A stretch of DNA of 64,000 nucleotides from an uncultured Gammaproteobacteria bacterium (GTDB lineage Bacteria; Patescibacteriota; Microgenomatia; UBA8517). The notes below the pieces were generated by a model. The model worked only from the letters and a program-made list of their open reading frames with translations, did not search any database and was not told the DNA's origin. Each line of letters starts with the position of its first letter. Position 1 is the stretch's first letter. Where the stretch lies: the NCBI GenBank assembly GCA_964396785.1, contig CAYNFU010000001.1, forward strand, positions 943 to 64,942. Reading direction: 5' to 3'. Below are positions 16,313-60,131 of this stretch, piece by piece. The position numbers and the translations under genes are program-made.

Positions 16313-16380
16313 TACTCTATTTTAACCCTTTTAGCTTAATTTGACTAAGTAATAGCCAAGGGGCATTATTAGCTTAATTT
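16313..16380. promoter_or_regulatory. Divergent intergenic region between a minus-strand membrane-protein gene and plus-strand asnB. It contains a 12-bp direct repeat TTAGCTTAATTT (16331..16342 and 16369..16380) and a TAAAAT hexamer (minus strand, 16319..16324) 6 nt upstream of the minus-strand ATG.
   Basis: Read directly from the sequence. The second repeat copy abuts the asnB ATG. There is no Shine-Dalgarno sequence on either side. Confidence 0.4.
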
Positions 16381-18267
16381 ATGTGTGGAATAGCCGGAAA
16401 AATATATTTGGACTCAAGATCCGTTAGCCACGAGCATCTTAGGAAAATGTCCGAAAAAATCGTACATCGTGGACCGGACGACGATGGTGTATATATAAGC
16501 CGCGACAAAAAGGTAGGGTTAATTAACCGTCGTCTTGCAATCATTGACTTATCAAAAGCCGGACATCAGCCGATGCTATACAAGGGACGCTACGCAATTA
16601 CCTTTAACGGAGAGGTCTATAATTTCCAGGAAGAAAGACGCAAGTTAGAAAAAGAAGGATACCAATTTAAATCAAACACCGACACTGAAGTGATTTTAGC
16701 CCTCTATGACAAATACGGAGTGTCCTTTTTAAAAAGACTTAGGGGGATGTTTGCTTTTGCAATCTATGATGACAGGGAAAAAACAATTTTTCTTGCCAGA
16801 GATAGAATCGGCAAAAAACCTCTTAAGTATTTCATTAACGGAGGCACTTTTATTTTCGCCTCAGAGCTAAAAGCAATTCTTACCCAATCCGAAGTCAAAA
16901 GGACGATTGACTACAATGCAATTCAGTCTTACTTAGTCTACGGCTATACCCCTTCACCCCTTACTGGTTTTGAAGGTATAAAGAAGCTTCAACCCGGCCA
17001 CTACATAATAATGAACCTGAGGCGAAAAACATTTGAAATCAAAAGATACTGGGAACCGGTTTTCAGAAATAAGCTTCATTTAACCGAGAATGAATGGTGC
17101 GACAGAATTCTTAATACTTTAGAGCAGTCCACCCGACTCCGGATGATCTCGGATGTACCAATTGGGGCTTTTGTGTCGGGTGGGGTTGATTCAAGTGGCG
17201 TCATTTATGCAATGAGTAAATTCTCGGATAAACCCATAAATACTTTCACAATTACCTTTGACGATAAAAAGTGGAGTGAAGCCAAATATGCTCAAAATCT
17301 AGTCAAAAAATTCGGGACGAATCACCACGAGCTTCTGGCTAAACCCGAGAATGTCGAAATCCTTCCTGAACTCGCATACCAATATGAGGAGCCATTTGCG
17401 GATGCAAGCAATGTTGTAACTTATATGGTGAGTCGTCTTGCAAGAAAGTATGTCACTGTCATATTAAACGGAGACGGAGGAGATGAGAATTTTGCGGGTT
17501 ACCCAAACAGATACTTTAGACTTGGCCGTGACGTGAACTTTTACAATTGGATAAACACAATAAGGCCCTTGGCAGTTGCCGGGTTAAAGGCATTAGCTAG
17601 AGTTTCAAAAAGTACTCTTGTTACCAGGCCAACCAATTTTTTTGAAAAATCAAAGCTTCCTCTATATCAGCGCTTCGCCTCCTACAACCAAATATTTTCT
17701 TTTGACGAAATCGTAAGTATGTCAACGGGTGCCTTGGTCGATGTAAACAACACACAAAATCCATACACAATTGTAGAAAACTGTTTCAAAATGTTTAAAG
17801 GCAAAGATCTAAAGGACGCGGGGCTCAAATTTGACCTTTTATACTGGCTACCGGATGACCTTTTGGCCAAAGTTGACATCGCTTCCATGGCCAGCTCACT
17901 TGAAGCCCGCTCTCCTCTACTGGACCATCATATGATAGAGCTTGCAGGTAAAATTCCATTTAGATTAAAGGTAAAAAATGGAGAGAGTAAATATATCCTC
18001 AAAAAGGCTCTTGAGACAGTCATCCCTAGAGAAAATTTATACAGGCCCAAGATGGGCTTCGGAGTTCCCCTCCATCTTTGGTTCTCTGGAAAATTAAATA
18101 GCTATACTAAAGGAGTTCTACTTTCCAAAAAGGCAAAGGTTAAAGGGTTAATTAGACAAGATGCAATCAAAAATATGCTTGAAGGTCATTCGGAAACCAA
18201 CGATTTCGGCCCACGCCTCTGGGCACTACTTTCACTGGAGCTCTGGTTAAAGAGCTTCTTCAACTAA
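16381..18267 (+). CDS. asnB: Asparagine synthetase (glutamine-hydrolysing) family amidotransferase, AsnB-like
   Basis: 628 aa. It starts MCGIAG (Cys2 is the class-II GATase nucleophile). The central VSGGVDSS is the PP-loop ATP pyrophosphatase motif. It is one of only two plus-strand genes in the window. Confidence 0.9.
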   Translation: MCGIAGKIYLDSRSVSHEHLRKMSEKIVHRGPDDDGVYISRDKKVGLINRRLAIIDLSKAGHQPMLYKGRYAITFNGEVYNFQEERRKLEKEGYQFKSNTDTEVILALYDKYGVSFLKRLRGMFAFAIYDDREKTIFLARDRIGKKPLKYFINGGTFIFASELKAILTQSEVKRTIDYNAIQSYLVYGYTPSPLTGFEGIKKLQPGHYIIMNLRRKTFEIKRYWEPVFRNKLHLTENEWCDRILNTLEQSTRLRMISDVPIGAFVSGGVDSSGVIYAMSKFSDKPINTFTITFDDKKWSEAKYAQNLVKKFGTNHHELLAKPENVEILPELAYQYEEPFADASNVVTYMVSRLARKYVTVILNGDGGDENFAGYPNRYFRLGRDVNFYNWINTIRPLAVAGLKALARVSKSTLVTRPTNFFEKSKLPLYQRFASYNQIFSFDEIVSMSTGALVDVNNTQNPYTIVENCFKMFKGKDLKDAGLKFDLLYWLPDDLLAKVDIASMASSLEARSPLLDHHMIELAGKIPFRLKVKNGESKYILKKALETVIPRENLYRPKMGFGVPLHLWFSGKLNSYTKGVLLSKKAKVKGLIRQDAIKNMLEGHSETNDFGPRLWALLSLELWLKSFFN

Positions 18268-34911: not shown

Positions 34912-35012
34912 TTTTTATGCTTAAACAATTTTTGAGCACGACTAACTATACCAGAAGGTATGGTCAAGAAACTACTGACAGATATTTCGCAGTAAAATAA
35001 CTGAAAATCTTA
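34912..35012 (-). promoter_or_regulatory. Candidate extended -10 TGGTATAGT (minus strand, 34945..34953) in the 101-bp gap upstream of the methyltransferase gene at 34225..34911
   Basis: The minus-strand sequence reads ...TTGACCATACCTTCTGGTATAGTTAGTCG...(approx. 30 nt)...ATG. It shares the GGTATA[AG]T core with the elements at 24926 and 38144. Confidence 0.35.
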
Positions 35013-37378: not shown

Positions 37379-38136
37379 GGGACGCTTAGCTTTGCAACAA
37401 CTGAAATTCCTAACGGATATTTAAAATATTTGACCATTCGAACCTCGCTGGTAAATAAAAACTTGAGTAATTCATTTATAAGACTCACGTGGGCGACGTC
37501 GAAATTAACACTATTATCATAGTTGCTTAAACTCCTTAAGGGTTTAAGTCTGCTCAAAAGCCTCATTGAAATTATTGGTAGGGAAAAAAGGAAATTGAAA
37601 TAACTAATAAAATCTACTTTCAATCCTGCTTTTTTCGCCAACATTCTAAACCTTCTTCTTGTGTATCTTCTCTCGTGTCCTTGATTAGTATCGTGCCCAG
37701 ACCAAATAAAGGGAAGTGCCGGGCTTGTAATAATAATTTTCCCTTTCTTCCTCAAAACTCTTGCCGCCTCTTTAACAACCCCAGCATCATCTTCAATATG
37801 TTCAATCACATCAAGAATTAACACTACGTCAAAGAAACCATTCTTGAAAGGTAAATTTAAAGCGTTAGCCTTAAAAATATTTTTGTGTCCCCTTTTTTTT
37901 GAAAACTGAATCGCTTTTTGAGAAGTATCAATGCCATAAAGTTCGGCTTTTGGAAATGAAGTTTTAAGGAATGAAAGAGTCTCACCAGTGCCACAACCAA
38001 CATCTAAAATTCTCTTATATTCCAATCCGCCAAGTAGTCCTTTAATTAGTTCTCGCCTACCTTCCCACCACCAATGAATTTTTTCAATCTCGTTGAATTT
38101 CTCAAGAAGGAAGTCGTCCATGCTCTTTGTTCTCAT
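37375..38136 (-). CDS. Class I SAM-dependent methyltransferase
   Basis: 253 aa. ILDVGCGTGETLSFL, FDVVLILDVIEHIEDDAGVVKEAARVLRKKGKIIITSP. Confidence 0.85.
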   Translation of the reverse strand: MRTKSMDDFLLEKFNEIEKIHWWWEGRRELIKGLLGGLEYKRILDVGCGTGETLSFLKTSFPKAELYGIDTSQKAIQFSKKRGHKNIFKANALNLPFKNGFFDVVLILDVIEHIEDDAGVVKEAARVLRKKGKIIITSPALPFIWSGHDTNQGHERRYTRRRFRMLAKKAGLKVDFISYFNFLFSLPIISMRLLSRLKPLRSLSNYDNSVNFDVAHVSLINELLKFLFTSEVRMVKYFKYPLGISVVAKLSVP

Positions 38137-38181
38137 AAAAAAGATTATACCGATAGAGCTACCAAGTTAGAAGAGGAGCGG
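38137..38181 (-). promoter_or_regulatory. Candidate -10 promoter GGTATAAT (minus strand, 38144..38151), 7 nt upstream of the ATG of the methyltransferase gene at 37375..38136
   Basis: The minus-strand sequence reads CTCTATCGGTATAATCTTTTTT-ATGAGAACA. 45-bp gap. Confidence 0.4.
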
Positions 38182-48149: not shown

Positions 48150-49004
48150 CTATTTGACTAACAATAAACCCAAAAAACCCAAAAAGGATCCTGCAATCTT
48201 CCAAATAATTCTCTTTCTTTCATTAAGAAAAAGAATCGCAAAAATCACAGTTACAACAACACCTATGGAATTTAAAGAAATTACTTGTGATGAATTTTCC
48301 GCAATCTGCAACGCATAGAAAAACAAAATTGCAGACGCTGCATAGAATAAACTTAAAGTCGCCATTCTAACAAATGTCCCCTTCACTAGAAAAACTTTCA
48401 TTTTTTTAATACTGCCGGAGTAAAATACTAGAACCGACAATGCTGGAAGGACAAATGCAAGGAATGAGTAAGGGAAAACATCAAAGTGCCCAAGGAGAAA
48501 TCTGTCGTTAACCACAGAGAACCCGAAAAACATTGCAGCCAGAAGAGAATAAATTTCTTTAAAAGAGAATTTAATTTTCCTTTTTTCCAAAGATACAATT
48601 ACTGCAGCAGAAAGGATAAGCAACGTACCTATCCATTGTGAAACTGTAAGACTTTCTTTCATTAAAAGCGAAAAAGCCAAAATTGCAAAAATTGCTCTGG
48701 AACTAAAGATAACAGAAAATTTTGACGCTTCGGTTCTTTTTAGTGCTTTAAACACAAAAATATTACCAAGTGCATAAAGAACTATCATTATTAAAAAGTT
48801 TAATATCAAAGGCTTGAAATCAGGGTACTTCATTGTGGTAAATAAATATCCAAAAATCCCTATCATAAGGCCTGTTAAAAGTTGGAAGAAAGAAGCATAA
48901 GCCACCGGATCACTATCCTTCTCCCTGACCAGTATTCTCTGCAGTAATACAGAGATAGAATAACAAATAACGCTCAAGATAATTAGTATTTGCCAAGTCA
49001 CCAT
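48150..49004 (-). CDS. EamA / DMT-superfamily transporter (10 TM, two EamA repeats)
   Basis: 284 aa. The two approx. 140 aa halves each carry an EamA-type helix pattern (…ALGNIFVFKALKRTEASKFSVIFSSRAIFAILAFSLL… / …LFYAASAILFFYALQIAENSSQVISLNSIGVVVTVIFAILFL…). It lies inside the GT-C paralog array. Confidence 0.7.
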   Translation of the reverse strand: MVTWQILIILSVICYSISVLLQRILVREKDSDPVAYASFFQLLTGLMIGIFGYLFTTMKYPDFKPLILNFLIMIVLYALGNIFVFKALKRTEASKFSVIFSSRAIFAILAFSLLMKESLTVSQWIGTLLILSAAVIVSLEKRKIKFSFKEIYSLLAAMFFGFSVVNDRFLLGHFDVFPYSFLAFVLPALSVLVFYSGSIKKMKVFLVKGTFVRMATLSLFYAASAILFFYALQIAENSSQVISLNSIGVVVTVIFAILFLNERKRIIWKIAGSFLGFLGLLLVK

Positions 49005-50671
49005 TATTTGGCCTCCATTATTAAATATGCCAGTGACCCGTCTGGCCTAAGAACTTCTTTAAGAATTGAATAGTCGCTTATAACTTGTTTTCTTGGGGCA
49101 ACTATCTCATCGGCAACAACGATAGTTCCAGTCGGATACTTGTATGGCCAACTCAAATACTGAAACTTTAGGTGTTTAAACTCACTTACAAGCCCCACGT
49201 CGCCGACGCTGCTTGACTCATAAACTGCGCTCTCCCAAAATTCTTGAGGGTCCCTTTTATCGTAAAAAAGAAAATATATAAAGGGCTGGGCGTATGACTG
49301 CTGGAAAACTACTTGTCGTGAATTAAGGTTCGACTCTTTTAAATATTGAACCGCCTCCCTGTAACCGAATTCCCAATATTTAGCCCCGTGCTTTGGAAGA
49401 TGTACGTAATAGGAATCTAGGTAGTATATATAGTTAAGAAAATATAATGCCACAAATCCCCATATAGCAATTCTTTTCAAATAATTCTTAGACAAATTGG
49501 CAAATAAGCCATGAAGGGCAAGCGAAGAAATAATAATCAAGGGAATTGCCATATGAAGACTCCTTACCCCATGAACGGGGTCTCTCGACAATATTGAAGG
49601 AACGGGTGCCAAAACAAGCCACAAAAGGAGGAATAAGAAATATTTGTTCTTAAGGCTTCGGATAAATAATATAAGTCCTGCAAGAATTAGAACGGAGTCT
49701 GCCAGAAGAAACATTCCCATATTTATCGAATTGTGTCTCGGGTTATTCCAATCACCCTCAAAAAAAAGAAATCTTCCCGAAAAATGGTTAAACCACTTTC
49801 CCATTATTACCCTAACCCAGTTAAGAGACTCCGAATGAAAAGCCAAATAAGTAGCTCCTCCTGGCTTCTCGCCACCCTGCTCCAGTATTTCTTTTATATC
49901 TGTCTCACTTCTCGGATATGAGAATGTGCTTACCACCGTAAGCCTTCCTGCGTAACCGGTGTAAACGCTTATTAAAATTGGCAAACTAATAATAATTCCT
50001 ACCCCAAAAGACCCCAGAAGCACTTTTTTGTCAAATCTTATTAAATTTTTGAAAAATAGTAGTCCGAGAAGTAAAACTACAATTGGAGTTGAAAGCTTGG
50101 CCCCCTGATAGCTAATGAGTGTTAGTCCGAAAAAAATTGCAGAGGCAAAAAGAAATCTGTTCTTTTCAAAAGATTTCATGAAGAAATAAATGCCGATAAG
50201 GGTCAGGCAAAAGGCGAGGTTAGGTACCCAGGCACCTCTGGAAAAATGTATAAGCCAGGGGTTGGTAGCTGCCAAGAAACCGGAAAATAGGGCAATACTC
50301 TCGAAATTTTTGTATTTAGCCTTTTCAAAAATTATCCTGGCTAAATGGAAGACAAAATAAACAATTATTACCCCGAAAATGGCGTTAGGGAGCCGAACGC
50401 TCAATTCATTTAAACCCATCACCCCAATAAACGGTGCAGCCAAATAGACGTAGAGCCCCGGAGTGTAATCTCCAAAAGACTTAAACACGATTGGCAAAGA
50501 CTCTCCCCAGAAATCTTTGCCTGTTTTTAATATTGAATAAGCGTTATATCCCAAAGCTACCTCATCGGAAGTCAGATGAGGAGGTATCGTCCCCAACTTC
50601 CAAAGCCTAAGAAATGCCGCCAAAAAAAGTATAAATAGGAGAATGGTTGTTGTATTAATAAATCGCTTCAT
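49004..50671 (-). CDS. GT-C-fold membrane glycosyltransferase, GT39-like. Tandem paralog 2.
   Basis: 555 aa. The first loop is HLTSDEVALGYNAYSILKTGKDFWGESLP. The C-terminal domain is YVHLPKHGAKYWEFGYREAVQYLKESNLNSRQVVFQQSYAQPFIYFLFY. Confidence 0.75.
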   Translation of the reverse strand: MKRFINTTTILLFILFLAAFLRLWKLGTIPPHLTSDEVALGYNAYSILKTGKDFWGESLPIVFKSFGDYTPGLYVYLAAPFIGVMGLNELSVRLPNAIFGVIIVYFVFHLARIIFEKAKYKNFESIALFSGFLAATNPWLIHFSRGAWVPNLAFCLTLIGIYFFMKSFEKNRFLFASAIFFGLTLISYQGAKLSTPIVVLLLGLLFFKNLIRFDKKVLLGSFGVGIIISLPILISVYTGYAGRLTVVSTFSYPRSETDIKEILEQGGEKPGGATYLAFHSESLNWVRVIMGKWFNHFSGRFLFFEGDWNNPRHNSINMGMFLLADSVLILAGLILFIRSLKNKYFLFLLLWLVLAPVPSILSRDPVHGVRSLHMAIPLIIISSLALHGLFANLSKNYLKRIAIWGFVALYFLNYIYYLDSYYVHLPKHGAKYWEFGYREAVQYLKESNLNSRQVVFQQSYAQPFIYFLFYDKRDPQEFWESAVYESSSVGDVGLVSEFKHLKFQYLSWPYKYPTGTIVVADEIVAPRKQVISDYSILKEVLRPDGSLAYLIMEAK

Positions 50672-50680
50672 CGAATCATT

Positions 50681-52453
50681 CTAATTTTCTAAAATCTCAA
50701 AGGCGGGTTTGCCGTCTAAGAAATTTATGGTTTTTAGTTTATTCCAGTTAGCTCTGTAACTCCCTGGGCTTGTAATTAACAAACATCTGGTTTCTTGCGC
50801 CTTACAGCTGACAATTCCGCCACTTTCGAGCGTAAAATCATCATTTGGCCCGGGAGTAATTTGCCAATCGTTTACGAAATAAAATTTATCGAATCTATCC
50901 ACCCAATACCAGTCTGATTGATGAAATCGTATCAGATTTGGGTCAGCTTTATATTTGGCCGGGTCCCAAGGCCAAAAGAACAAGAAGAATTCGTGGGGTT
51001 CTCCGTATTTCTTTGTAATTATTATTTTATCGTACTTTTGATAATTGTCCCTAGCATAATCAACTGCTTGCCTATATCCGTATTGCCAGGACCAAGAATA
51101 TTCTTCGGGATAGAGAGTAAAATAGTTCGTTAAATAACTTTTGGCAAGGAAAAATATTCCGACACAATAAAGTGTAAAAAAAATAAACTTAGTCGCGGGG
51201 TTTCCCTTTTTAGTTATTAAATCGTAGACAAAAAATAACCCAATTGCGGCTAAGATCTGAGGTAAGGGAAGCATGACAGAGGCGCGAGTCACGGCAAAAT
51301 GTTCACTAGTTATACTTCCGGCAATAGGGGAAAGCGCAAGCCAGGCCAAAAGTAACAGGTAGTCTTTATCTCCCTTAAAAGATTTCTTAAGAAGAATATA
51401 AATTCCCAAATAAAAAAACGGCAAATTGATTAAATAGGAGAGACCTTTCCCAGGAAGGCTATATTGAAACTGTGTTCCGCCGGATAAAAAGAGAAACTGC
51501 GGCGATAAATATTCTAGATAATTACGGCTAAAATGATAAATAAGATAGGTTGGTCTGTTGTAAATAAGTTTGGGGAGGGGTTGAGGTAAGGAAGAGGAGA
51601 GCCTGCCTTCCTCAATACTTGCAATCGCCCCCTCATTTATAATAAAAAGCCACTTGGCTCTCGCTCTTGCGGAGGGTTCTAAAAGAATTGCCCCGGCCAA
51701 GACGAAAAAGGCAATTAGCGCCGATATAGAAACTATGGGGATGAAGCTTTCCCTTTTTATTAAATTTTTAAATTCGCCACGATATATAACCAGGGTCGCA
51801 ACTAGTATAAGTGGAGAAAATATTCTGGTTGAGTGATAGGAAAAAAGCGACAGAAAAAGAAAGGCAAGTGAAAGTGGAAGTAAGTATTTCTTTTTATCTC
51901 TATTAAAAAAGGCAGCCGCCGACGCAGTAAGCAAAAAAATCGAAAGGTTTTGTTGTAAAACTACTCTTGAGGTAAATAATGTCCACGGCTCAATAGCTAC
52001 TAGAAAAGAAGAAAGAAGGGCTAATTCCCTGCGTTTAGTTAGTCCCATTGCAAGGAAATACGTGGCAACTGTCGTAAGAACGCCTAAAACTGCATGGGGA
52101 AATCTGATTGCAAATTCGTTAAGCCCAAAAACCAGTATTGAAGGGATGGTCATATAGAGATTTAGGGGCAAAGGATAATCGCCGTAGGCTCGAAAATTGA
52201 CAACGGGTAAGGCCTGCCCCCATTCGTCTGCTCCCGTTTTCAATATCGAATAGGCGTTATAGCCGTGCGAAACCTCATCCCAATTAACTGCAGGGGGGAA
52301 ATCTGAAAGGTTAATGAGCCTAAGGGCGGCCGCCAAGACCAAGACCAGAAAAAGGAGCTTGTTTTCCAAAAACAAACCCCAACCCTTCTTAAAAAGAGTC
52401 CTCATAGCAAAATTATATCTTCGCAAAGTCAAAAAGTCGAAGAAGTAGTACAA
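50681..52453 (-). CDS. GT-C-fold membrane glycosyltransferase, GT39-like. Tandem paralog 3. The true start is probably the internal ATG (MRTLFKK, approx. 52405).
   Basis: 590 aa ORF. The first loop is NWDEVSHGYNAYSILKTGADEWGQALP. The C-terminal domain is YPEEYSWSWQYGYRQAVDYARDNYQKYDKIIITKKYGEPHEFFLFFW. The ORF-track start overlaps the upstream gene by 25 nt. Confidence 0.75.
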   Translation of the reverse strand: MYYFFDFLTLRRYNFAMRTLFKKGWGLFLENKLLFLVLVLAAALRLINLSDFPPAVNWDEVSHGYNAYSILKTGADEWGQALPVVNFRAYGDYPLPLNLYMTIPSILVFGLNEFAIRFPHAVLGVLTTVATYFLAMGLTKRRELALLSSFLVAIEPWTLFTSRVVLQQNLSIFLLTASAAAFFNRDKKKYLLPLSLAFLFLSLFSYHSTRIFSPLILVATLVIYRGEFKNLIKRESFIPIVSISALIAFFVLAGAILLEPSARARAKWLFIINEGAIASIEEGRLSSSLPQPLPKLIYNRPTYLIYHFSRNYLEYLSPQFLFLSGGTQFQYSLPGKGLSYLINLPFFYLGIYILLKKSFKGDKDYLLLLAWLALSPIAGSITSEHFAVTRASVMLPLPQILAAIGLFFVYDLITKKGNPATKFIFFTLYCVGIFFLAKSYLTNYFTLYPEEYSWSWQYGYRQAVDYARDNYQKYDKIIITKKYGEPHEFFLFFWPWDPAKYKADPNLIRFHQSDWYWVDRFDKFYFVNDWQITPGPNDDFTLESGGIVSCKAQETRCLLITSPGSYRANWNKLKTINFLDGKPAFEILEN

Positions 52454-54108
52454 TAAATGCTTTTGACCTTTTCTGATTTACATTTTAGGAAAGGATTTGT
52501 CCTATAAACTTGGAAGACAACTTCCCCAAGAGGCTCCTTAATCTCAAGTGCTTTTTCGAGCTTGTGTTCTTGGGCCTGCTCTGGGGAAATTGCAAGACTA
52601 TCCCCCACTAAAAATTGCTCTTTATAAATATCTTTTTCCCAAATAATTGCCCTTGTTTCTATATTCGCAAACTTAAAGTTTTGATCGAAAGGAGGGTTTT
52701 CATAATAGTTTTTTCTGATTGTGGGATCTACCGAATTCTGAAACTCCTGGGGTGGAACCTTGAGGAAAAACGCCAACTCTATGTAGGGGATGGGAATCCT
52801 TACCCTATCAATAACAAAATGCGAGTCGGGATTCTTTTTGATAAATTGAGATAGTTCTGCGTATCCATATGCCCAATATTTAGCCTTTTCAACGGGAAAA
52901 ATTACAAAATAAGACCGCCAAAAAAGTATTAGGGAAAAACAAAATACGACTATTCCCAAGATTACCCAAAAACCCCGGTTAATAAGTTTTCTTTTGAATA
53001 TTTTTGTCGAAATTATCTTATCTAATCCCAAAGCTATAGCTAAAAAGATGGGAAGAATAAGGGCTAATGTTCGATGAACAGGAAACGGGTCCTTGGTAAG
53101 CGATGCTGTGATTGGTGCTGAGAGGGCCAATAGAAAAATAAATTTTGAACGATCGCTCTGCCTTTTCTTCCACAGTAAATAAATTCCAATTAAATAAGGA
53201 ACAAGCATCCATTGATAAAAAAGCGTAAGACCCGGCAGGTCTTTGTAGCCAGCTAAAAATAGCGATTTTGGCGAGAAATAATTCGCAAACTGTGATGAAA
53301 ACTCCCTAATAAAGGAAAGTAAAATGGCTAAAGGGGCAGGTATGAAGCCTTTCAATTTTTCGGATTGCATCAAAATATTTTGAAGTCCTGTTTCTTCGGT
53401 TTTAGGCAAAAATACAGGGGTAGTAAGAAGGTACAAATGCGGAATCTGAGTCAAAATTAAAACCCCTAAAGCGTACAAGAAATTTTTCCTGTTCGATTGA
53501 GCTAAAAGGAGCTTTCTAAAAAATAAAAAGTAAAAGACAAGCACAAAAGGAACTGTAAACCTTTGGGCATACGCGGCGTAAGTTGAAAGGGAAAGAACAA
53601 AAAATGCTGGGATGAGCCAATTTTGTTTTTTTACAGACAACCAGAGAAAATAACTTCCCAAACAAAAAAGTGTGAATGCTAGACCTATCTCGTCTCCAAC
53701 TCTCGCACGAAATACAACCACGGGTGTTATCGCGAAAAACAAACTTCCGATAGTTGAGATTTTCATACTTTTCAAAAAAGCATAAATTATGAATATTAAG
53801 GCTAAGCCCGAAAGCGCCGCGATACTCCTTACAGAAAAAGCAGTCAAACCCCATATCTTGATTGGCAAAGTAGTGAGGTATACATAAAGAGGTTCATTGT
53901 AAGAGCCATACATTCGAAAGACCATAGGGAAGGCTTTTCCATATTCGTCTTTCCCGGTTTCTAAAATCGAATATGCCGAATACCCGTGTAAGGCTTCGTC
54001 TACATAAAAGCCTGGCGGGATTACATCGAGTTTATGAAAGAACATAAAAATCCCGACTATAAGAAGTAGCGATAAAAATATTATTTGTTTAAAAGAAATT
54101 TTCGGCAT
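52429..54108 (-). CDS. GT-C-fold membrane glycosyltransferase, GT39-like. Tandem paralog 4.
   Basis: 559 aa. The first loop is FYVDEALHGYSAYSILETGKDEYGKAFP. The C-terminal soluble domain is VIFPVEKAKYWAYGYAELSQFIKKNPDSHFVIDRVRIPIPYIELAFFL. Confidence 0.75.
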   Translation of the reverse strand: MPKISFKQIIFLSLLLIVGIFMFFHKLDVIPPGFYVDEALHGYSAYSILETGKDEYGKAFPMVFRMYGSYNEPLYVYLTTLPIKIWGLTAFSVRSIAALSGLALIFIIYAFLKSMKISTIGSLFFAITPVVVFRARVGDEIGLAFTLFCLGSYFLWLSVKKQNWLIPAFFVLSLSTYAAYAQRFTVPFVLVFYFLFFRKLLLAQSNRKNFLYALGVLILTQIPHLYLLTTPVFLPKTEETGLQNILMQSEKLKGFIPAPLAILLSFIREFSSQFANYFSPKSLFLAGYKDLPGLTLFYQWMLVPYLIGIYLLWKKRQSDRSKFIFLLALSAPITASLTKDPFPVHRTLALILPIFLAIALGLDKIISTKIFKRKLINRGFWVILGIVVFCFSLILFWRSYFVIFPVEKAKYWAYGYAELSQFIKKNPDSHFVIDRVRIPIPYIELAFFLKVPPQEFQNSVDPTIRKNYYENPPFDQNFKFANIETRAIIWEKDIYKEQFLVGDSLAISPEQAQEHKLEKALEIKEPLGEVVFQVYRTNPFLKCKSEKVKSIYCTTSSTF

Positions 54109-54957
54109 TTAGGGTCTAGTATTTAAAAATATCTGAATGACTATTAGAAAATAAAAGAGAATAAATACTGAAGTTGCTGCAATCTTTAGCCTCGTATTTT
54201 TATTTTTCAACACTAAAGACGAAACGTATTCAATTCCCAAAATCCCACAAGCCGCAATGAAGGGGAACAAAATAAAAGGCTCTATATTTGGAGAAAAGTT
54301 CCCTACTACTAAATATATAATTGGTAAAACAAATCCCAGAGCTATCAAACTTAAGTTTTTTCGAAAGTTAATTGCGAAAAATCCAATAAGAAAAAGGGGT
54401 AGGAGTATATACGGAAATTTTTCCAACTCGGTAATCCCCACTCTCTCATTGGGATGGTTTGCAAAAAAATATAAATTGGGATCAAGAACCTCACCCAAAT
54501 TATGTTGAAGTCGATAAAAAGTTAGGGTCTCTGGCCTTTCTTCCAACCAATGGGCGGCAGGGATCCAAATGGTTCGTGTCCCGATTGTTATTTTTACAGG
54601 AGGATATAATTTAAGTCTTTGTATCTGCAAGACTTCCTGTTGTTTATTAAGCTTAGTAAGACTTGTAAGATTTAAACCCTTTAGGCTAAAGAGAAAAAGA
54701 ACAAGATAACAAATAATTAAGAGTTTATTTAGTTTTGATTTACCTAAAGAAGTCAGTATTAAGTATGTCGATAAAATAAGGATAACTCCCACAATAAAAT
54801 TAAGAGTAAATATTCTCCAAATCCAGATGTTTCCCAAAACAACTAGAGGAAAAACGGGAGTGATACCAAGTTTTTTTACTTTCCCAAGAAAACTAAAGTT
54901 CATTTGCGTCAACAAGAATGTATGAAGGTGCGCCGTCCAGGTAGGTAAATGTCGCAA
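54109..54957 (-). CDS. Hypothetical membrane protein (approx. 6 TM) inside the GT-C array. The start is probably the internal ATG near 54903.
   Basis: 282 aa ORF. It has hydrophobic helices at both ends and a loop containing TIGTRTIWIPAAHWLEERPETLTFYRL. The ORF-track start overlaps the upstream gene by 65 nt. Confidence 0.45.
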   Translation of the reverse strand: MRHLPTWTAHLHTFLLTQMNFSFLGKVKKLGITPVFPLVVLGNIWIWRIFTLNFIVGVILILSTYLILTSLGKSKLNKLLIICYLVLFLFSLKGLNLTSLTKLNKQQEVLQIQRLKLYPPVKITIGTRTIWIPAAHWLEERPETLTFYRLQHNLGEVLDPNLYFFANHPNERVGITELEKFPYILLPLFLIGFFAINFRKNLSLIALGFVLPIIYLVVGNFSPNIEPFILFPFIAACGILGIEYVSSLVLKNKNTRLKIAATSVFILFYFLIVIQIFLNTRP

Positions 54958-56578
54958 GGGGGGCTACATGAGATGGAAATTCTTCGGGCCGGCCCACAAC
55001 CAAATAGTTCATACCTTTAAGGTCCGAAATCACGATATCTCCGAAAGTAAATTCAGCCATAGAATATTCGTTCAACTGGTCCAAATATTTTATTCCTAAT
55101 TTCTCATATCTTAACCAAACACGAGACGCATCTTGAACTTCGCTTGGGTCGACCTGCATATAAAACTGAGCCCAAATGTTGGGAACAGAAAGGGTCCTAC
55201 TTAATACCACTCCTTCATAATTTCCCTCGATACTATTTATAGTAGCCATTATGTCCTTCATGCCGTATTGCATGGCCTTAGAAGCCCTGAGCGGAGCGTG
55301 ATAGCGGTAATCTTCCAAGAAACCGGCCAGGGAACCAAGTAAAATAATTAAAACTCCCCAAGCAAACCCTTTTGCCAAGCCGTTGCCGTACCTCCCTTTC
55401 AGCTTCTCATAAAGATATACTCCACCCCAGACTGATATTACCTGTATCGCTGGTATCATTACGGCAGCGCGGTTTGCCGCAAAGCCAGGGCCCTTGGTAA
55501 GAGCAGCGGCAATGGGAGAAATCAAAATCCAAAGAAGAAATAGCCCCATTTTGTTAAACCCTTCCTTTTTGGCAAAAGAAAAAATGGCGGCTAAAACAAA
55601 AATCACCTCAAAAACGTAAAGTACTCCCCTTCCGGGTATTAATCCATAGCTCCATTCTCCGGCTCCCTCGCTAAATAGAAACGAGGATGAAAAATATGAA
55701 AGGTAATTTTTGCTGAAGGTCTCAAAAACATAACTTACTTTGTTGGAAAATATTCGAGCGTAAAAATCAGGGAAGCCCTGAAGTGTAGCCTCATAGCGCC
55801 TGTCGGCAACCGCAGCCCAATTGTCGGTAGGGCTAATAATTGTAATATCCAAACCCCTTTTGGCCCCACCCGTAAACATGGTAAATATAGCGGTTGCCAA
55901 GAAAACACTGAATATAAGTAGCCCCCATTTATACTTGGACAATATTATCCCTTGTACCTTTGCCCCCATTTGTTTTAATTCCTTTAAGTAACTTCCAACT
56001 AGAACAAGGATAAGTACTGGGGTAAAAAGTCTTGCGGAATGGTAAGAAAACAAATTTAGGCCAAAGGAAATTGCCGCCAAGACCATAAAACGGGGTTTTT
56101 CGATGGCTGTAACAAATGCCCAGACGCCCAAGGGAATAAAAAAGGTTGTCAAATTGGCCTCAAACGCGCCCCTAGAAAGACCTATATGCCAAGGTGAGAC
56201 CGCCAGAAAAAGAGCTGATAAAAGACCAAGCTCCTTCCTTTTGGTTATTTTGGAAACCATAAGGAAAGTGGTCAGAACCGCCAATGAGCCTAAAATAGCG
56301 TTGGGAAGCCGCACGCTAAATTCGTTCAGTCCTAATAAATAAACCGAGGGGATTGCTAAATATGAATAAAGGGGCATTTTAAAGTCCCCGAAAGAGCGTA
56401 AAACCAAAGGCAGAGACTTTCCCCATTGGTCCTTGCCGGTAAGGAGCAGTGAGTATGCGTCGTATCCCAAGCCCGCCTCGTCCTGGGTAAAACCCACGGG
56501 GAAGGAGGAAATGCCAACGACCCTCAAAAGAAGGGCTCCAATAAAGATGAAGGATAAAAGTATTAAGTATTTTTTCAT
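54893..56578 (-). CDS. GT-C-fold membrane glycosyltransferase, GT39-like. Tandem paralog 5.
   Basis: 561 aa. The first loop is FTQDEAGLGYDAYSLLLTGKDQWGKSLP. The C-terminal domain is YHAPLRASKAMQYGMKDIMATINSIEGNYEGVVLSRTLSVPNIWAQFYM. Confidence 0.75.
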   Translation of the reverse strand: MKKYLILLSFIFIGALLLRVVGISSFPVGFTQDEAGLGYDAYSLLLTGKDQWGKSLPLVLRSFGDFKMPLYSYLAIPSVYLLGLNEFSVRLPNAILGSLAVLTTFLMVSKITKRKELGLLSALFLAVSPWHIGLSRGAFEANLTTFFIPLGVWAFVTAIEKPRFMVLAAISFGLNLFSYHSARLFTPVLILVLVGSYLKELKQMGAKVQGIILSKYKWGLLIFSVFLATAIFTMFTGGAKRGLDITIISPTDNWAAVADRRYEATLQGFPDFYARIFSNKVSYVFETFSKNYLSYFSSSFLFSEGAGEWSYGLIPGRGVLYVFEVIFVLAAIFSFAKKEGFNKMGLFLLWILISPIAAALTKGPGFAANRAAVMIPAIQVISVWGGVYLYEKLKGRYGNGLAKGFAWGVLIILLGSLAGFLEDYRYHAPLRASKAMQYGMKDIMATINSIEGNYEGVVLSRTLSVPNIWAQFYMQVDPSEVQDASRVWLRYEKLGIKYLDQLNEYSMAEFTFGDIVISDLKGMNYLVVGRPEEFPSHVAPLATFTYLDGAPSYILVDANEL

Positions 56579-58266
56579 TGGCTTTTTGAGTAGATGTAAA
56601 AAAGCGGCGTATGTTCTGGAGAATAAATAATGTCTAACAAAGTGAGCTCGGGGTTATCAAAAATGTAGGGGTTACTCACGTCTTTTTCAGTGGATGCAAC
56701 TATCAAATTTCCTTCTTTCGCCAGAGTCTCGATAGGTTTAACCAGCTCCCCAAAATAATATTTTTCTCCAAGCTTGAATCCATTAAACCCCGGGTATATG
56801 CCTCCGATGTGTTTATCGTCCTCAAAAGTTTTCTGGAAAAGTTCCATATCATATCCGTACCAAAATAAAAATCGGGTCAGCATGGGTTCGTAGGTGTTGT
56901 TTAAAAACACCCTTTCATATCTTCCCTCATTTGCCCTAACATAGCTTCCAACCTCCTTAAATCCATACTGCCAGGCCCGCCAGCTCTCCTTAGGCCAAAT
57001 CACGAAAAAGCCGTGGAAAAAACGCGATACTTCATAAAGCATTAAAAGAATAAATACCCCTAGCAATAACTTTCCTTTAAGTTTACCGGAGTACCCAAGG
57101 ATTGAGCTAAAACCCAAGGCAGAAAGGGCGATCAAAGGAGGCAACATGAGTATCAGCCTCGACGCGTGGGTTCCACCTCCTTCGGTTAGAACAGATGGAA
57201 GTGGGGCAAGAATTAACCATATGCCGATAACTTTAAAAATTCTCTTTTTTTCCTCAGATAGCTTCGAATGGGTGGAAGCCCATATGAAGAGCCCAATAAG
57301 AATAAGAACTAGGTCGAAATAGTAAAAAACTCCGTAGCCCTTAACCGATTGTCTCGGGTTGGGATCCCCTTCCGAGAAAAGAAAACTCGGGGAGAAAGAC
57401 TTAAGATAATTTTGAAGGATTCTTTCTGTAACCACTGTCGCTTTATTGTTAAAAATTCTCGAAAGGGTCGTGTTTGAGAATTTGCGCCCTTCCTCAACCT
57501 CAAGAATAATATCCCTCTTGGGAGCAATTGTAATATAAGAAAACCTCTGGGTTGTTCTACCGCTGACTGACTGGGCGATGTATGGAGCTAGAAGAACCAG
57601 CGAGACAAAAGCCAAAGACAGAAGCTTTTTTGGTCCATATGCAAAAATTTTCTTTCTATAAATGGCAACTAGAAAAAGAACAAAAAGAGGGACAAATAAT
57701 GAGGCTATCGCATAGGTATAAATCCCGAGAGCAAAAAAAACTGCAGAGAGTATCAGGAATTTAAACTCTTTTACTCCTTTAACAAAATAGAGCGTTCCCA
57801 AAATTATAAAGGGGAGAAGAATTCCTGCGTCATTTGCCTGCCTTGAATAAAGAAAATGCCAGGGAGAAATTGCCAAAAATATCGCGGCAACTGTCGCCAC
57901 TTTCTTGTCAAAAAATTCTTTTACCAAAAAATATAAGGCAATAATTGAGATAAAACCCATAATGACCGACGGGGCCCTTACCCCCCACTCACTTAGTCCC
58001 AAGATTTTAATAAATGGGGCGTCTAAATAAAGCTGCATTGGGAGCCTATATTCGGCAAAGCTGTGGAATAAAATGGGCAGCTTATTTCCGAAATAATCCC
58101 TGCCGGTTTGGGCAATCGAATTCGCCTGAAGGCCGACGTCAATCTCGTCTCCAAATAACGAAACGGGGACTTTATCAACCTGCCAGAATCGCAAAAAAAT
58201 CGCTACAAAAAAAACAAGCGCTGCAAAAATAAAGAGAGGATTTTTAAGATATTTCCTCATACCCAA
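56575..58266 (-). CDS. GT-C-fold membrane glycosyltransferase, GT39-like. Tandem paralog 6.
   Basis: 563 aa. The first loop is LFGDEIDVGLQANSIAQTGRDYFGNKLP. The C-terminal domain is WPKESWRAWQYGFKEVGSYVRANEGRYERVFLNNTYEPMLTRFLFWY. Confidence 0.75.
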   Translation of the reverse strand: MGMRKYLKNPLFIFAALVFFVAIFLRFWQVDKVPVSLFGDEIDVGLQANSIAQTGRDYFGNKLPILFHSFAEYRLPMQLYLDAPFIKILGLSEWGVRAPSVIMGFISIIALYFLVKEFFDKKVATVAAIFLAISPWHFLYSRQANDAGILLPFIILGTLYFVKGVKEFKFLILSAVFFALGIYTYAIASLFVPLFVLFLVAIYRKKIFAYGPKKLLSLAFVSLVLLAPYIAQSVSGRTTQRFSYITIAPKRDIILEVEEGRKFSNTTLSRIFNNKATVVTERILQNYLKSFSPSFLFSEGDPNPRQSVKGYGVFYYFDLVLILIGLFIWASTHSKLSEEKKRIFKVIGIWLILAPLPSVLTEGGGTHASRLILMLPPLIALSALGFSSILGYSGKLKGKLLLGVFILLMLYEVSRFFHGFFVIWPKESWRAWQYGFKEVGSYVRANEGRYERVFLNNTYEPMLTRFLFWYGYDMELFQKTFEDDKHIGGIYPGFNGFKLGEKYYFGELVKPIETLAKEGNLIVASTEKDVSNPYIFDNPELTLLDIIYSPEHTPLFYIYSKSQ

Positions 58267-60086
58267 TTATCGAGCCAGCCAGATAACATTACAAGCATCC
58301 AGATAGCCCCCGCATTATTTTCTTTCCCTTTCTGATGGGCAGTCCAAATACTCTTAATTTTTTTTTTCTCGACATAGTTTTCGAGTTTCTTATTCATAAG
58401 TATTGTATACGCAAAATCTTTTAGTTCATTTCGTAACCATTTTTTTAGTGGTATTCCAAATCCTTTCTTTGGTCTTTTGGCTACTTCCGGAAGCCTACTC
58501 TCCAAAAGCTTTCTAAGTTGAAGTTTCGTTTTAAATAAGTTCAAATGGGGCTCTCGGGTTGAAAATGCCCAGGCAAGCACATTGTTATCTAGATAGGGAA
58601 CTCTAACCTCGAGACTATTAAGCATCGAAGCGCGGTCTGTTTTAACCAAAAAATCGTCGCGCAGGTAGGTATAAAAATCGACAACTTGACCTACACGACT
58701 TTTATCAAATCTATCTAAATTCGGTATCATTTTTGATAAAAATGACATATCGGGTTTTTCAAATAAATTGTTCTCTCCAATAAAAAACGTCCTCATCCAA
58801 TAAAGTTGTCTTTCCAAATCGCCAAATTTCATACCCTTAAGGACTATTTTCGCAAGATGCTTTTTGGGGTAGTCTTTGAATGACGTCGGAAATAGGTTAA
58901 CGACAGATTCGGGTAATCCCTCAAGAAGTCCCGAAAGAAGGGTATTCGGTAAAAATTTAAGTAAATTAGCATAAAGGTGGGCTTGGTGGGTCGGATATCC
59001 CCCAAAAAGCTCATCGCCCCCGTCACCCGACAGGGCAACGGTCACATGCTGCCTTGCCAGCTGACTCACCTTATAAGTCGGGAAGAGTGACGCATCCGCT
59101 AGTGGCTCATCCAATTTCGGAATTATTTTCTCATAAATATCGACGACGTCTTTTGGGCTAAATTCATCACTAAAATGCTCTGTCCCTATTTTTTTAGCAA
59201 CACTGTGCGCGTATTTTGCTTCGTCAAAACCTTCTTCTTTAAAACCTATCGAGAAGGATTTGAGTTTTTTAAATTTGGCTACATAGTAAGCTATTAAACT
59301 TGAGTCGAGGCCCCCGCTCAAAAAAACGCCAACTGGAACGTCGGAAACAAGCTGGCTTTTAACTGCGGTCTCTAATAGTTTGTCTATATTGTCAGTTTTA
59401 TTTTCCGAGCTGGAATTAAGTTCAAAATACTTAGCAACTTTCATTCCAGATTTCTTGAAGCTCAAGGTATGTCCCGGAAGCAGCTTTTTAATTCCAGAAA
59501 ACATGACTTGGTCTCCAGGAAGAAATCCTAGATAACCATACATGCTAAGGGCCTTACTATCTGTTTTCTTTTTATATAAAGGGTGGGAAAGAATTACTTT
59601 CGGTTCAGAACCAAATATCAAAAGATTTGAGGCTACATAATAATAAAGAGGTTTTATCCCAACTCTGTCACGTCCCAGAAAAATCTTGTGCCCCTTCTCG
59701 TCCCAAAGAGCAAAGGCAAACATACCGTTTAATTTAGGAACAAAGCCTTCACCGTATTCTTCATATCCGTGTACCAAGACCTCGGTGTCGGTTTGGGTTT
59801 TAAATTTATGTCCCCTTTTCTCGAGTTCCTCTCGAAGCGGCTTATAATTATAAATTTCTCCGTTATAAATAACGACGACGCTCCCGTCTTCATTTTTAAT
59901 CGGCTGATCCCCAGTTGTTAGGTCAATAATTCGAAGTCTACGAATTCCAAGTGCGGCAACATTATCTCGACTCCTATATATTCCTGTCGAATCCGGTCCC
60001 CGATAAATAATCTTTTTCGTCATTTCGCCAATGACCGAAGGACCCGTTCTTCCTGAAAAATCAACGTACCCGGCAATCCCGCACAT
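58257..60086 (-). CDS. asnB: Asparagine synthetase (glutamine-hydrolysing) family amidotransferase, AsnB-like. Second copy.
   Basis: 609 aa. It starts MCGIAGYV (Cys2 nucleophile). LSGGLDSS is the PP-loop. It is embedded in the glycan locus between GT-C paralogs. Confidence 0.9.
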   Translation of the reverse strand: MCGIAGYVDFSGRTGPSVIGEMTKKIIYRGPDSTGIYRSRDNVAALGIRRLRIIDLTTGDQPIKNEDGSVVVIYNGEIYNYKPLREELEKRGHKFKTQTDTEVLVHGYEEYGEGFVPKLNGMFAFALWDEKGHKIFLGRDRVGIKPLYYYVASNLLIFGSEPKVILSHPLYKKKTDSKALSMYGYLGFLPGDQVMFSGIKKLLPGHTLSFKKSGMKVAKYFELNSSSENKTDNIDKLLETAVKSQLVSDVPVGVFLSGGLDSSLIAYYVAKFKKLKSFSIGFKEEGFDEAKYAHSVAKKIGTEHFSDEFSPKDVVDIYEKIIPKLDEPLADASLFPTYKVSQLARQHVTVALSGDGGDELFGGYPTHQAHLYANLLKFLPNTLLSGLLEGLPESVVNLFPTSFKDYPKKHLAKIVLKGMKFGDLERQLYWMRTFFIGENNLFEKPDMSFLSKMIPNLDRFDKSRVGQVVDFYTYLRDDFLVKTDRASMLNSLEVRVPYLDNNVLAWAFSTREPHLNLFKTKLQLRKLLESRLPEVAKRPKKGFGIPLKKWLRNELKDFAYTILMNKKLENYVEKKKIKSIWTAHQKGKENNAGAIWMLVMLSGWLDNWV

Positions 60087-60131
60087 ATGTAGATTATCTC
60101 AATATTTAGTAGAATATACTACTTATAAGCT
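60087..60131. promoter_or_regulatory. Divergent intergenic region between asnB (minus) and the HD hydrolase gene (plus). GATAAT (minus strand, 60093..60098) lies 6 nt upstream of the asnB ATG. TATACT/TATAAG hexamers lie on the plus strand upstream of the HD gene.
   Basis: The minus-strand sequence reads AAATATTGAGATAATCTACAT-ATGTGCGGG. The plus-strand sequence reads TAGAATATACTACTTATAAGCT-GTG. Confidence 0.35.

Follow-up and report, generated by a model that had tools for sequence, protein, structure and literature searches.

The 64,000-nucleotide stretch of DNA analyzed here (hereafter, the window) comes from a glycosylation (sugar-transfer) gene cluster of Candidatus Woesebacteria (CPR/Microgenomates), an uncultured groundwater bacterium. 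It raises the question of what the -10-like hexamers located almost flush with several start codons are for, and whether the genes behind them are transcribed into leaderless mRNAs. Intergenic gaps are rare in the window, as pointed out in a preliminary description of the sequence: only 9 gaps of at least 16 nt occur among its 54 genes. A co-directional array of roughly 42 kb runs from 60086 to 18247, and a second array, from 16312 to 297, is headed by the 16312 gene. Scans of the gaps for Rfam families, tRNAs, terminators and significant RNA structure all came back empty, no recognizable intrinsic terminators were found in the array, and a scan for canonical -35/-10 pairs detected no excess of promoter-like sites.

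Hexamers at a fixed distance from start codons

All six strings reported in the preliminary description exist on the minus strand, and five of these are -10-like hexamers that end exactly 6-7 nt upstream of a start codon, with hexamer, spacer and start as quoted; for the 38136 site, however, the 7-mer TTATACC on the plus strand starts at 38145, not at 38144. Three of the sites are located in gaps inside the long array and are candidate internal promoters. The methyltransferase gene (37375-38136) follows a 45-nt gap that holds a GG-TATAAT element with G at -14 (GGTATAAT, 38144..38151), separated by CTTTTTT (7 nt) from the ATG at 38136. The GT-C glycosyltransferase gene (23375-24919) follows a 47-nt gap with a consensus extended -10, TGG-TATAAT (TGGTATAAT, 24926..24934), then CTGGCT (6 nt) and the GTG at 24919. 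The gene at 21324-22604 codes for a 426-aa multi-pass membrane protein, a putative Wzx-type flippase by its position and topology; its 30-nt upstream gap contains TACAAT (22612..22617), preceded by GGC with G at -14 and followed by TTGACTA (7 nt) and the GTG at 22604. Upstream of the asparagine synthase-like (AsnB) gene (58257-60086), the extended -10 TGA-GATAAT (60093..60101, hexamer 60093-98) is followed by CTACAT (6 nt) and the ATG at 60086. Finally, the membrane protein gene at 14954-16312 is preceded by TAAAAT (16319..16324), with GGT before it (G at -14) and AGAGTA (6 nt) between the hexamer and the ATG at 16312.

The sixth site, in a 101-nt gap, is an extended -10, TGG-TATAGT (TGGTATAGT, 34945..34953, minus strand), which lies 33 nt upstream of the ATG at 34911 and was described as having a conventional leader. 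It would be a leadered promoter, the predicted leader being roughly 26 nt long and lacking a Shine-Dalgarno (SD) sequence. No comparable upstream -10 was found in the four orthologues examined (L012, L041, L073, L045). The site sits inside an imperfect palindrome, CATACC-ttct-GGTATAG.

A hexamer was counted if it matched TATAAT at 5/6 positions or more (window rate, 0.0091 per position). Five of the 11 gapped starts have one at offset 6-7, whereas 0.2 would be expected (P=2e-6); raising the expectation 3-fold to allow for the AT-richness of the gaps (expectation range, 0.2-0.6) still leaves P=4e-4. Up to 45 nt upstream of the same starts there are 13 such hexamers, 5 of which fall at 2 of the ~40 offsets (P=3e-4). 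Across the window, TATAAT is depleted (44 observed vs 68 +/- 8.7 in shuffles), and GGTATAAT is present in two copies, both strands counted, each at one of the quoted sites. In the flanks, G occupies -14 at all six sites (P=5e-5), as part of a full TG at -15/-14 at 24919, 34945 and 60086, and alone at 38136, 22604 and 16312. Among the five start-adjacent sites, the canonical scan identified a -35 with at least 4/6 matches only for 16312 (TAGTCA, 16342-16347, minus strand, with a 17-nt spacer to TAAAAT), and none for 24919, 38136, 22604 and 60086.

One additional match was rejected as fortuitous. A TAGAAT (50678..50683, minus strand), 6 nt upstream of the ATG at 50671, overlaps the upstream gene's stop codon, and the closest relative, L007, has TAGAGG (SD-like GAGGA) in its place; about one chance match is expected among 54 starts.

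Conservation among orthologues and across the lineage

In orthologues of the GT-C, flippase and methyltransferase genes (45-75% amino acid identity), TAnnnT lies 6-8 nt upstream of the aligned start, with varying spacers. Among 35 orthologous flippase loci, TAnAAT is found 6-8 nt upstream of a position-conserved GTG in 27, and 9 nt upstream in 3 more; the GTG adjoining the hexamer coincides with residue 1 in the family alignment. Many of the 63 loci related to the GT-C gene carry TGnTATAAT or TGnTAGAAT 5-8 nt upstream of the start, for example, TGGTATAAT-CTAAAG-GTG, TGATATAAT-CAGATC-ATG and TGATAGAAT-TTAGGT-ATG, with a hexamer of at least 5/6 at offset 6 in 11 loci and an exact TATAAT in 7. 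All four methyltransferase loci L089-L092 (63-70% identity) have TATAAT or TATTAT 6-7 nt upstream of the first in-frame ATG, and the AsnB orthologue in L093 (78%) has TGAGATAAT-TTAGAT-ATG. These counts are not independent, since orthologous sites share descent. Spacers of 9-14 nt, implying short leaders, occur in a few orthologues.

Such conservation bears directly on the possibility that the hexamers are chance matches in AT-rich intergenic DNA, to which we assign next to no probability. The gaps are indeed AT-rich, the pattern class is degenerate, the extra match at 50671 is evidently random, and promoter-like sites are not in excess in the canonical scan. Against this stand the window statistics (P from 3e-4 to 2e-6) and, above all, the persistence of hexamer and distance across orthologues at 45-78% identity despite divergent spacers, which effectively refutes chance.

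We also examined ~0.9 Mb of related contigs, with starts taken from crude longest-ORF calls. The offset histogram for all gapped genes peaks at 6-7 (36 vs 8.7 expected, P=4e-12); for 154 genes unrelated to the finding the enrichment is modest (14 vs 7.1 expected at offsets 6-7, P=0.014; 32 vs 17.8 at offsets 5-9, P=0.0015). TATAAT (17), TAAAAT (13) and TAGAAT (9) rank among the most frequent hexamers that end 5-8 nt upstream of the 202 gapped starts, whereas overlapping genes show A-rich hexamers only and no offset peak. Among 55 lineage sites, G is found at -14 in 31 and T at -15 in 27, with enrichment of T/T/(A or G) at -35 to -33, which appears in the logo as a weak TTG. By these crude start calls, the start-adjacent -10 is a minority mode in the lineage.

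Divergent junctions and dependence on gene context

Although all five start-adjacent sites were initially described as internal promoters, this does not hold for two of these, 16312 and 60086, which head divergent transcription units. The 60093 site would be the primary promoter of the ~42-kb array rather than an internal one. The MCGI (Met-Cys) N-terminus pins down the AsnB start codon; Cys2 is the catalytic nucleophile in this class of asparagine synthase-like enzymes. The 45-nt AsnB gap is identical at 45/45 positions in L007, the 90%-identity relative, compared with ~91.5% in the flanks. On the plus strand of the same gap, back to back with the 60093 promoter, TATACT (60115..60120) is a candidate -10 of the divergent HD-domain gene, with the GTG at 60132 located 11 nt downstream. 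The HD-domain gene starts with GTG in the window and with ATG in L007.

The AsnB hexamer is retained where the gene diverges from the HD gene (the window, L007 and L093) and a consensus-class hexamer is absent at that distance where AsnB is operon-internal (L094-L097, with a co-directional neighbor and a 0-27 nt gap), L095 having a borderline AATAAT at 6 nt. The hexamer of the 16312 gene is not conserved: its orthologues are mostly operon-internal, those that are internal lack the hexamer, and some have an AAGGAGG SD. The divergent partner of this gene, a second AsnB paralogue starting with the ATG at 16381, is preceded at 11 nt by a candidate promoter, TTGACT-17 nt-CATTAT (16341..16369, plus strand), with a predicted leader of ~4-5 nt; two close orthologues have CATTAT ~12 nt upstream of the ATG, and others have TACAAT at 8-11 nt. 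The sites at 38136, 24919 and 22604 and the leadered 34945 site would be internal promoters adding entry points within the array; 60086 and 16312 would head long co-directional arrays at divergent junctions.

Could the hexamers act in RNA, as A/U-rich, non-SD enhancers of translation initiation on read-through polycistronic mRNA, rather than as promoters? The lack of terminators in the gaps implies that read-through transcripts probably include these sequences, upstream regions are A-rich everywhere, and SD-like pairing is not enriched at starts in either the window or the lineage. Pairing of -6 kcal/mol or stronger, scored against an anti-SD assumed to be canonical (the loci include no 16S rRNA), is found upstream of 9 of the 53 window starts scored (17%), compared with 16.6% of random coding-strand positions; in the lineage gene classes the rate is 2-11%, similar to control regions. 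Accordingly, the earlier observation that none of these genes has an SD is true but uninformative, because SD-like pairing is not enriched upstream of any gene class here. However, overlapping, operon-internal genes lack the motif, and the same gene loses it on becoming internal; no translational role is served by T at positions -12 and -7, by G at -14 or by the weak -35; and the fixed distance is what polymerase geometry predicts. GeneMarkS-2 separates group B, with an RBS at all genes, from group C in the same manner (PMC6028130). We therefore regard action as RNA-level enhancers as improbable, and these observations support the interpretation of the hexamers as promoter -10 elements held at a set distance from the start codon.

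Class of promoter

The extended -10 promoters (TGnTATAAT) of sigma-70/SigA holoenzymes are -35-independent and common in Firmicutes. The window sites resemble these in having TG at -15/-14 in three cases and G at -14 in six; unlike extended -10 promoters with a 5'-UTR downstream, the element here is fused to the start codon. The shared core GGTATA[AG]T that had been proposed dissolves among orthologues: these show TGG, TGC or TGA upstream of TATAAT, so G at -13 is not conserved. What is conserved is TGn, G being invariant at -14 in the window sites, and this corresponds to the generic extended -10 of housekeeping sigma-70-family factors, with recognition by sigma region 3.0 as an assumption. 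Likewise, the suggestion of a special shared sigma-factor specificity found no support, the conserved TGn being the classic housekeeping extended -10. It is very improbable that GGTATA[AG]T defines a regulon of an alternative sigma factor or of a dedicated regulator coordinating the glycosylation cluster. Three window sites do share the motif, and the 34945 copy is palindromic, albeit imperfectly; yet G at -13 varies in orthologous promoters, the motif coincides with the housekeeping consensus, and TGnTAnnnT is also found upstream of unrelated genes in related contigs.

Predicted transcription and translation starts

It appears probable that these gaps hold start-adjacent sigma-70-type extended -10 promoters (TGn-TAnnnT) whose -35 is weak or absent, and that leaderless mRNAs result; the most likely sigma factor to recognize these promoters is the housekeeping one. 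The analysis shows that the motif exists, where it lies, that it exceeds chance, and that it is conserved and depends on gene context; that the sites are active as promoters, where exactly transcription begins and that translation initiates at the 5' end are inferred. Because the hexamer ends 6-7 nt from the start codon, RNA polymerase would be expected to begin on the opening base (A or G) of the ATG/GTG or 1-2 nt upstream of it; with a 7-nt spacer, the transcript could begin 1 nt upstream of the codon. The products would be mRNAs with a 5'-terminal AUG or GUG that are translated without an SD interaction. Two of the five start-adjacent sites have a GTG start. As a leaderless initiator, GTG works poorly in E. 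coli but is accepted in mycobacteria.

The methyltransferase presents a further choice. A second in-frame ATG (Met6; 38119..38121, minus strand) lies five codons downstream, and the predicted transcript would reach it after 15 nt. Nearly all orthologues retain it (N-termini of P0121-P0174), gene callers choose either ATG, and many orthologues are annotated from Met6. Translation could instead begin at Met6, leaving a 15-nt leader. More broadly, the promoters could be real and some transcripts short-leadered, with translation from a downstream start codon, such as Met6, or transcription from a few nucleotides upstream. In addition to the conservation and frequent annotation of Met6, such an arrangement would fit the neighboring hexamers 9-13 nt upstream of 33528, 28558, 16381 and 60132 and the longer spacers of some orthologues. 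It is nevertheless unlikely to be the main explanation: all five methyltransferase loci have an in-frame ATG 6-7 nt past the hexamer (chance, ~1/64 per site), and for AsnB and the flippase the hexamer-adjacent codon aligns with residue 1 of the family.

Comparison with known leaderless systems

The pattern corresponds to the known "-10 box adjacent to ORF" leaderless arrangement, here in a CPR lineage. Bacterial leaderless genes have been surveyed in silico by Zheng et al. in 2011 (PMC3160421), and a leaderless transcriptome has been described in Mycobacterium tuberculosis (PMC3898074). In GeneMarkS-2 group C (Actinobacteria, Deinococcus-Thermus), leaderless genes have a Pribnow box 6-8 nt from the gene start (PMC6028130), and the '-10-motif' TANNNT of Deinococcus radiodurans has been validated experimentally (PMC12340547). 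The similarities to group C and Deinococcus include TAnnnT 6-8 nt upstream of ATG/GTG with no SD in between, confinement of the signal to the first genes after a gap and its lack at operon-internal genes, a weak or dispensable -35, and the coexistence of leadered genes. A gene of this kind is expected to have its transcription start on the opening base of the start codon or within ~2-5 nt of it; here, the start is predicted from the 6-7 nt distance.

There are also differences. Internal genes in group C use an RBS (dual model), whereas no SD enrichment is seen here, with the anti-SD assumed to be canonical. Unlike known leaderless systems, the host is a member of CPR/Microgenomates with an AT-rich rather than GC-rich genome, the pattern is predicted from sequence, and it occurs in a modest fraction of gapped genes. 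The Bacteroidota (GeneMarkS-2 group B) share AT-rich, in their case non-SD A-rich, motifs near starts and little SD usage; however, in group B the motifs are found ahead of every gene, operon-internal genes included, whereas TAnnnT here is found only at gapped starts and has promoter-specific flanks. Within the literature library searched, no paper ties leaderless transcription to CPR, Patescibacteria or Saccharibacteria.

We tentatively propose, as a reading with somewhat less than even prospects, that Microgenomates, under near-zero SD selection, use start-fused extended -10 promoters to deliver mRNAs with a 5'-terminal AUG or GUG for key envelope-glycosylation genes. If so, CPR would gain their first documented leaderless regime. 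Both the retention of a leaderless GUG across the flippase family and the conserved pair of in-frame AUGs in the methyltransferase, one 5'-terminal and the other 3-5 codons downstream, would be notable. Such a regime would also offer a lead on how the reduced ribosomes of CPR bacteria choose start codons.

Gene content and host of the cluster

Minus-strand coding fills nearly all of the 64-kb window. The majority of the 54 genes (ORFs of at least 100 aa) overlap a neighbor by 4 nt (ATGA) or lie less than 10 nt from it, and there are only nine gaps of at least 16 nt. The products are mostly GT-C/PMT_2 glycosyltransferases, GT2/GT4 transferases and methyltransferases, together with two asparagine-synthase (AsnB) paralogs and a putative flippase, so labeled from its position and membrane topology. 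Exact protein matches come from Rifle aquifer metagenomes and the MAG GCA_001792925.1; the window belongs to one species with MGGX01000044.1 of that MAG and with the ANAN16 scaffold_269 contigs. The closest species-level relative is Candidatus Woesebacteria RBG_16_42_24 (90% amino-acid identity); the host is therefore a CPR/Microgenomates bacterium. The roughly 60-kb cluster, with its many tandem GT-C (PMT_2/PMT) genes, probably builds the cell envelope. The tandem GT-C paralogs, ~540–590 aa each, occupy 46536–60086 and 62999–63988 (minus strand) and share 25–29% identity, as measured in L007, a 90%-identity relative; along with an AsnB paralog, they form an unusually large glycosylation array.

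Hexamers adjoining start codons in the window

The preliminary description reported –10-like hexamers immediately upstream of several genes that follow intergenic gaps. This observation is confirmed: every string is found on the coding strand, with one plus-strand coordinate corrected by one (38145, not 38144). On the minus strand, TAAAAT precedes the ATG of a membrane protein gene at 16312 by 6 nt, TACAAT the GTG of the flippase gene at 22604 by 7 nt, TGGTATAAT the GTG of a GT-C gene at 24919 by 6 nt, GGTATAAT the ATG of a methyltransferase gene at 38136 by 7 nt, and GATAAT the ATG of AsnB at 60086 by 6 nt. At a sixth, leadered site (34945), TGGTATAGT lies 33 nt upstream of the minus-strand ATG at 34911.

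Hexamers matching TATAAT at five or more of the six bases have a density of 0.0091 per position in the window. At offsets of 6–7 nt between hexamer and start codon, 5 are seen upstream of the 11 starts preceded by a gap, against 0.2 expected (P = 2e-6), and the excess persists (P = 4e-4) when the expectation is tripled to allow for AT-rich gaps. Altogether, 13 such hexamers lie no more than 45 nt upstream of gapped starts, 5 of them at offsets 6–7 (P = 3e-4). A seventh candidate, TAGAAT 6 nt before 50671, was rejected as the roughly one chance hit expected across 54 starts; L007 reads TAGAGG at this position. Also rejected was GGTATAAT as a specific motif (2 copies vs 2.4 by chance on both strands, 128 kb); its placement is non-random, both window copies falling at these sites. 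TATAAT is depleted on both strands of the window (44 vs 68 ± 8.7 in dinucleotide shuffles), and TGNTANNNT is likewise under-represented (119 vs 145 ± 11.5), as would be expected if coding DNA is selected to avoid spurious promoters.

The arrangement across the lineage

The enrichment over controls that the preliminary description anticipated upstream of starts appears, as a peak at 6–7 nt, in ~0.9 Mb of non-redundant related contigs with crude longest-ORF gene calls. Among the commonest hexamers ending 5–8 nt before 202 gapped starts are TATAAT (17), TAAAAT (13) and TAGAAT (9); overlapping genes in these contigs yield A-rich hexamers only. For all gapped lineage genes, 36 hexamers fall at offsets 6–7 against 8.7 expected (P = 4e-12). 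When all orthologs of the genes at our sites were removed, leaving 154 gapped genes, 14 hexamers were found at offsets 6–7 vs 7.1 expected (P = 0.014) and 32 vs 17.8 at offsets 5–9 (P = 0.0015). Because the excess persists in unrelated genes, the arrangement is real in this lineage, although the present measurements make it a minority mode. A count that does not depend on gene calls finds 18 copies of TATAAT with the opening start codon of a long ORF 6–7 nt downstream, compared with 0–5 for six permuted control hexamers.

Gene-by-gene comparison of relatives

A scan of genome contigs with AsnB gave two loci only, and the lineage sample was taken from a metagenome scan. For the GT-C gene at 24919, 80 related metagenome loci were collected. 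Its orthologs (45–72% identity) often carry TGnTATAAT or TGnTAGAAT 5–8 nt ahead of the ORF's first start codon, and the spacers between hexamer and start are unrelated, as in TGGTATAAT-CTAAAG-GTG, TGCTATAAT-CGGAGCT-ATG, TGATATAAT-CAGATC-ATG and TGATAGAAT-TTAGGT-ATG. A hexamer with at least 5/6 matches is found at offset 6 in 11 of 63 orthologs, vs 0–3 at other offsets.

The flippase start codon (22602–22604, minus strand) was compared in 35 orthologous loci. In 27 of these, a GTG in exact register with residue 1 of the window protein is preceded by TAnAAT at 6–8 nt, and in three more the distance is 9 nt. With kinship ignored, the start is GTG in 28 of the 30 orthologs with an adjacent –10 (offset 6–9 nt) and ATG in four of the five that lack it; lineage-wide, again ignoring kinship, GTG starts 34% of genes with an adjacent –10 vs ~9% of other gapped genes.

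Targeted contexts were fetched for orthologs of the methyltransferase and AsnB genes. For the methyltransferase, the gap and flanking gene order are syntenic, and all four fetched orthologs have TATAAT or TATTAT 6–7 nt before the first in-frame ATG. A second Met, 3–5 codons downstream of the first ATG, is nearly invariant (window 38119–38136, minus strand; orthologs L089–L092). In the window protein it lies five codons on; many orthologs are annotated from there, gene callers picking either ATG, so translation may start at either AUG or both. This double-ATG architecture could be a sign of dual initiation or of a backup start.

The 45-nt divergent gap upstream of AsnB is identical in L007 at 45/45 positions, vs ~91.5% in the 300-nt flanks. 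A more distant ortholog (L093, 78% amino-acid identity) retains TGAGATAAT-TTAGAT-ATG with an altered spacer. In four others (L094–L097), AsnB is preceded by a co-directional gene with a gap of 0–27 nt; a hexamer at this distance is missing from three and no better than borderline in L095 (AATAAT at 6 nt). In L095 (~1440–1475), AATAAT-6 nt-ATG comes after a 7-bp hairpin without mismatches (CTCCGAT-TAA-ATCGGAG) and a TTTG, and the whole looks like a compact terminator-plus-promoter junction. The 16312 site is confined to the window species, its orthologs being mostly operon-internal, several with an AAGGAGG Shine-Dalgarno (SD) sequence.

Probable promoter type

The shared GGTATA[AG]T core was initially taken as a sign of a shared sigma-factor specificity. 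This core does not point to a dedicated sigma factor. When 55 lineage sites are aligned on the hexamer, G occupies –14 in 31 and T occupies –15 in 27, with a weak preference for T/T/(A or G) at –35 to –33; in the window, all six sites have G at –14 (P = 5e-5), and TG is complete in three. Among orthologs, –13 can be G, C or A. Given this variability and the common TGn, GGTATA[AG]T is a local instance of TGnTATAAT, the generic extended –10 of housekeeping sigma-70-family factors.

A scan for the canonical –35/–10 consensus over 16–64 kb of the window, uninformative for –35-independent promoters, gave promoter-like sites at or below shuffle expectation (38 vs 52, 52 vs 49, 33 vs 31). It recovered only 16312 (TAGTCA-17-TAAAAT) and the plus-strand promoter of 16381; the recovery of 16312 alone among the five sites fits extended –10 promoters that do not need a –35. 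At 30–47 nt, each gap would accommodate roughly one promoter, and nothing else was identified in these gaps: no intrinsic terminators on the coding strand, no Rfam match, no tRNA and no significant structure (folding z-scores from –0.86 to +0.67). An 8-bp stem, CGAAAGAA/TTCTTTCG, upstream of TACAAT at 22604 is not significant (z = –0.86), and look-alike stems at its orthologs are part of the upstream gene, where it encodes a conserved C terminus. An archaeal-type TATA box at about –26 does not apply, the organism being bacterial and the distance wrong.

Translation signals

The absence of SD sequences before these genes had been offered in support of leaderless expression. The argument does not discriminate: pairing of –6 kcal/mol or stronger to an assumed canonical anti-SD is found at 9 of 53 window starts (17%) vs 16.6% of random coding-strand 20-mers. 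The anti-SD was taken as canonical, there being no rRNA in the collected loci. Strict SD motifs occur in 2–11% of genes across lineage gene classes (L009–L088), no more than in control regions, and positions –1 to –8 are A-rich instead. In a published survey, the anti-SD motif was less often detected only in a subgroup of Parcubacteria (PMC9297842).

With SD-like pairing no commoner before starts than in controls, in the window or the lineage classes, attention is due to the main rival explanation, in which the hexamer is an A/U-rich element that enhances translation of read-through mRNA. However, the motif is missing before operon-internal genes, AsnB loses it on becoming operon-internal, and its G at –14 and –35 features play no part in translation. 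For these reasons, the enhancer is disfavored relative to a promoter.

Predicted transcription units

A –10 element spans –12 to –7, and A and G are both favored initiating nucleotides. A six-base spacer would therefore place +1 on the first base of the start codon; a seven-base spacer would place it there or on the preceding base. The predicted products are leaderless mRNAs or mRNAs with a 1-nt leader. The leaderless reading appears largely right, without the special sigma factor. The description of all sites as internal promoters applies in part. The sites at 38136, 24919 and 22604, and leadered 34945, would be internal promoters in an array without recognizable terminators; 60086 and 16312 lie at divergent junctions and would be the primary promoters of long arrays.

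Both divergent partners are on the plus strand, each with a predicted leader of ~4–5 nt: TTGACT-17-CATTAT 11 nt before the start of the second AsnB paralog at 16381, opposite 16312, and TATACT 11 nt before that of the HD-domain gene at 60132, opposite 60086. The 68-nt gap of the former pair contains a 12-nt direct repeat, TTAGCTTAATTT, at 16331–16342 and 16369–16380 (plus strand), the second copy adjoining the ATG at 16381; the counterpart in close relatives is TTGACTTA/TTGGCTTA. This repeat is a possible regulator site. An imperfect palindrome, GTAGAATATACTAC, at 60109–60122, between the back-to-back –10s of the 45-nt gap, is a possible operator. At the leadered site, a GTG 5 nt after the TGGTATAGT –10 opens a 12-codon ORF, VLKNCLSIKNEN (34901–34939, minus strand), with its stop 8–10 nt into the main gene, which begins with the ATG at 34911. 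The short ORF is perhaps a leaderless uORF with coupling to the main gene, or else a chance occurrence (about 12% expected).

Relation to known leaderless systems

Leaderless expression is best known from Actinobacteria, Deinococcus-Thermus and archaea, and to our knowledge, the promoters and translation signals of the Candidate Phyla Radiation are almost uncharacterized. In GeneMarkS-2 group C, frequent in Actinobacteria and Deinococcus-Thermus, a Pribnow box lies 6–8 nt from gene starts (PMC6028130), and the Deinococcus '-10-motif' TANNNT is a pattern validated experimentally (PMC12340547). As in both, the hexamer described here adjoins the start; unlike group C, internal genes show no SD enrichment. 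A full-text literature search found no account of leaderless expression in CPR bacteria, Patescibacteria or Saccharibacteria. The mechanism is an ordinary one, not new in itself; the lineage is new.

If transcription start site mapping bears this out, leaderless gene expression would reach the Candidate Phyla Radiation. Start calls disagree at exactly these genes, and CPR annotations would gain from a start model that allows for leaderless genes. The promoter positions would also provide a transcription-unit map for the roughly 60-kb glycosyltransferase cluster.
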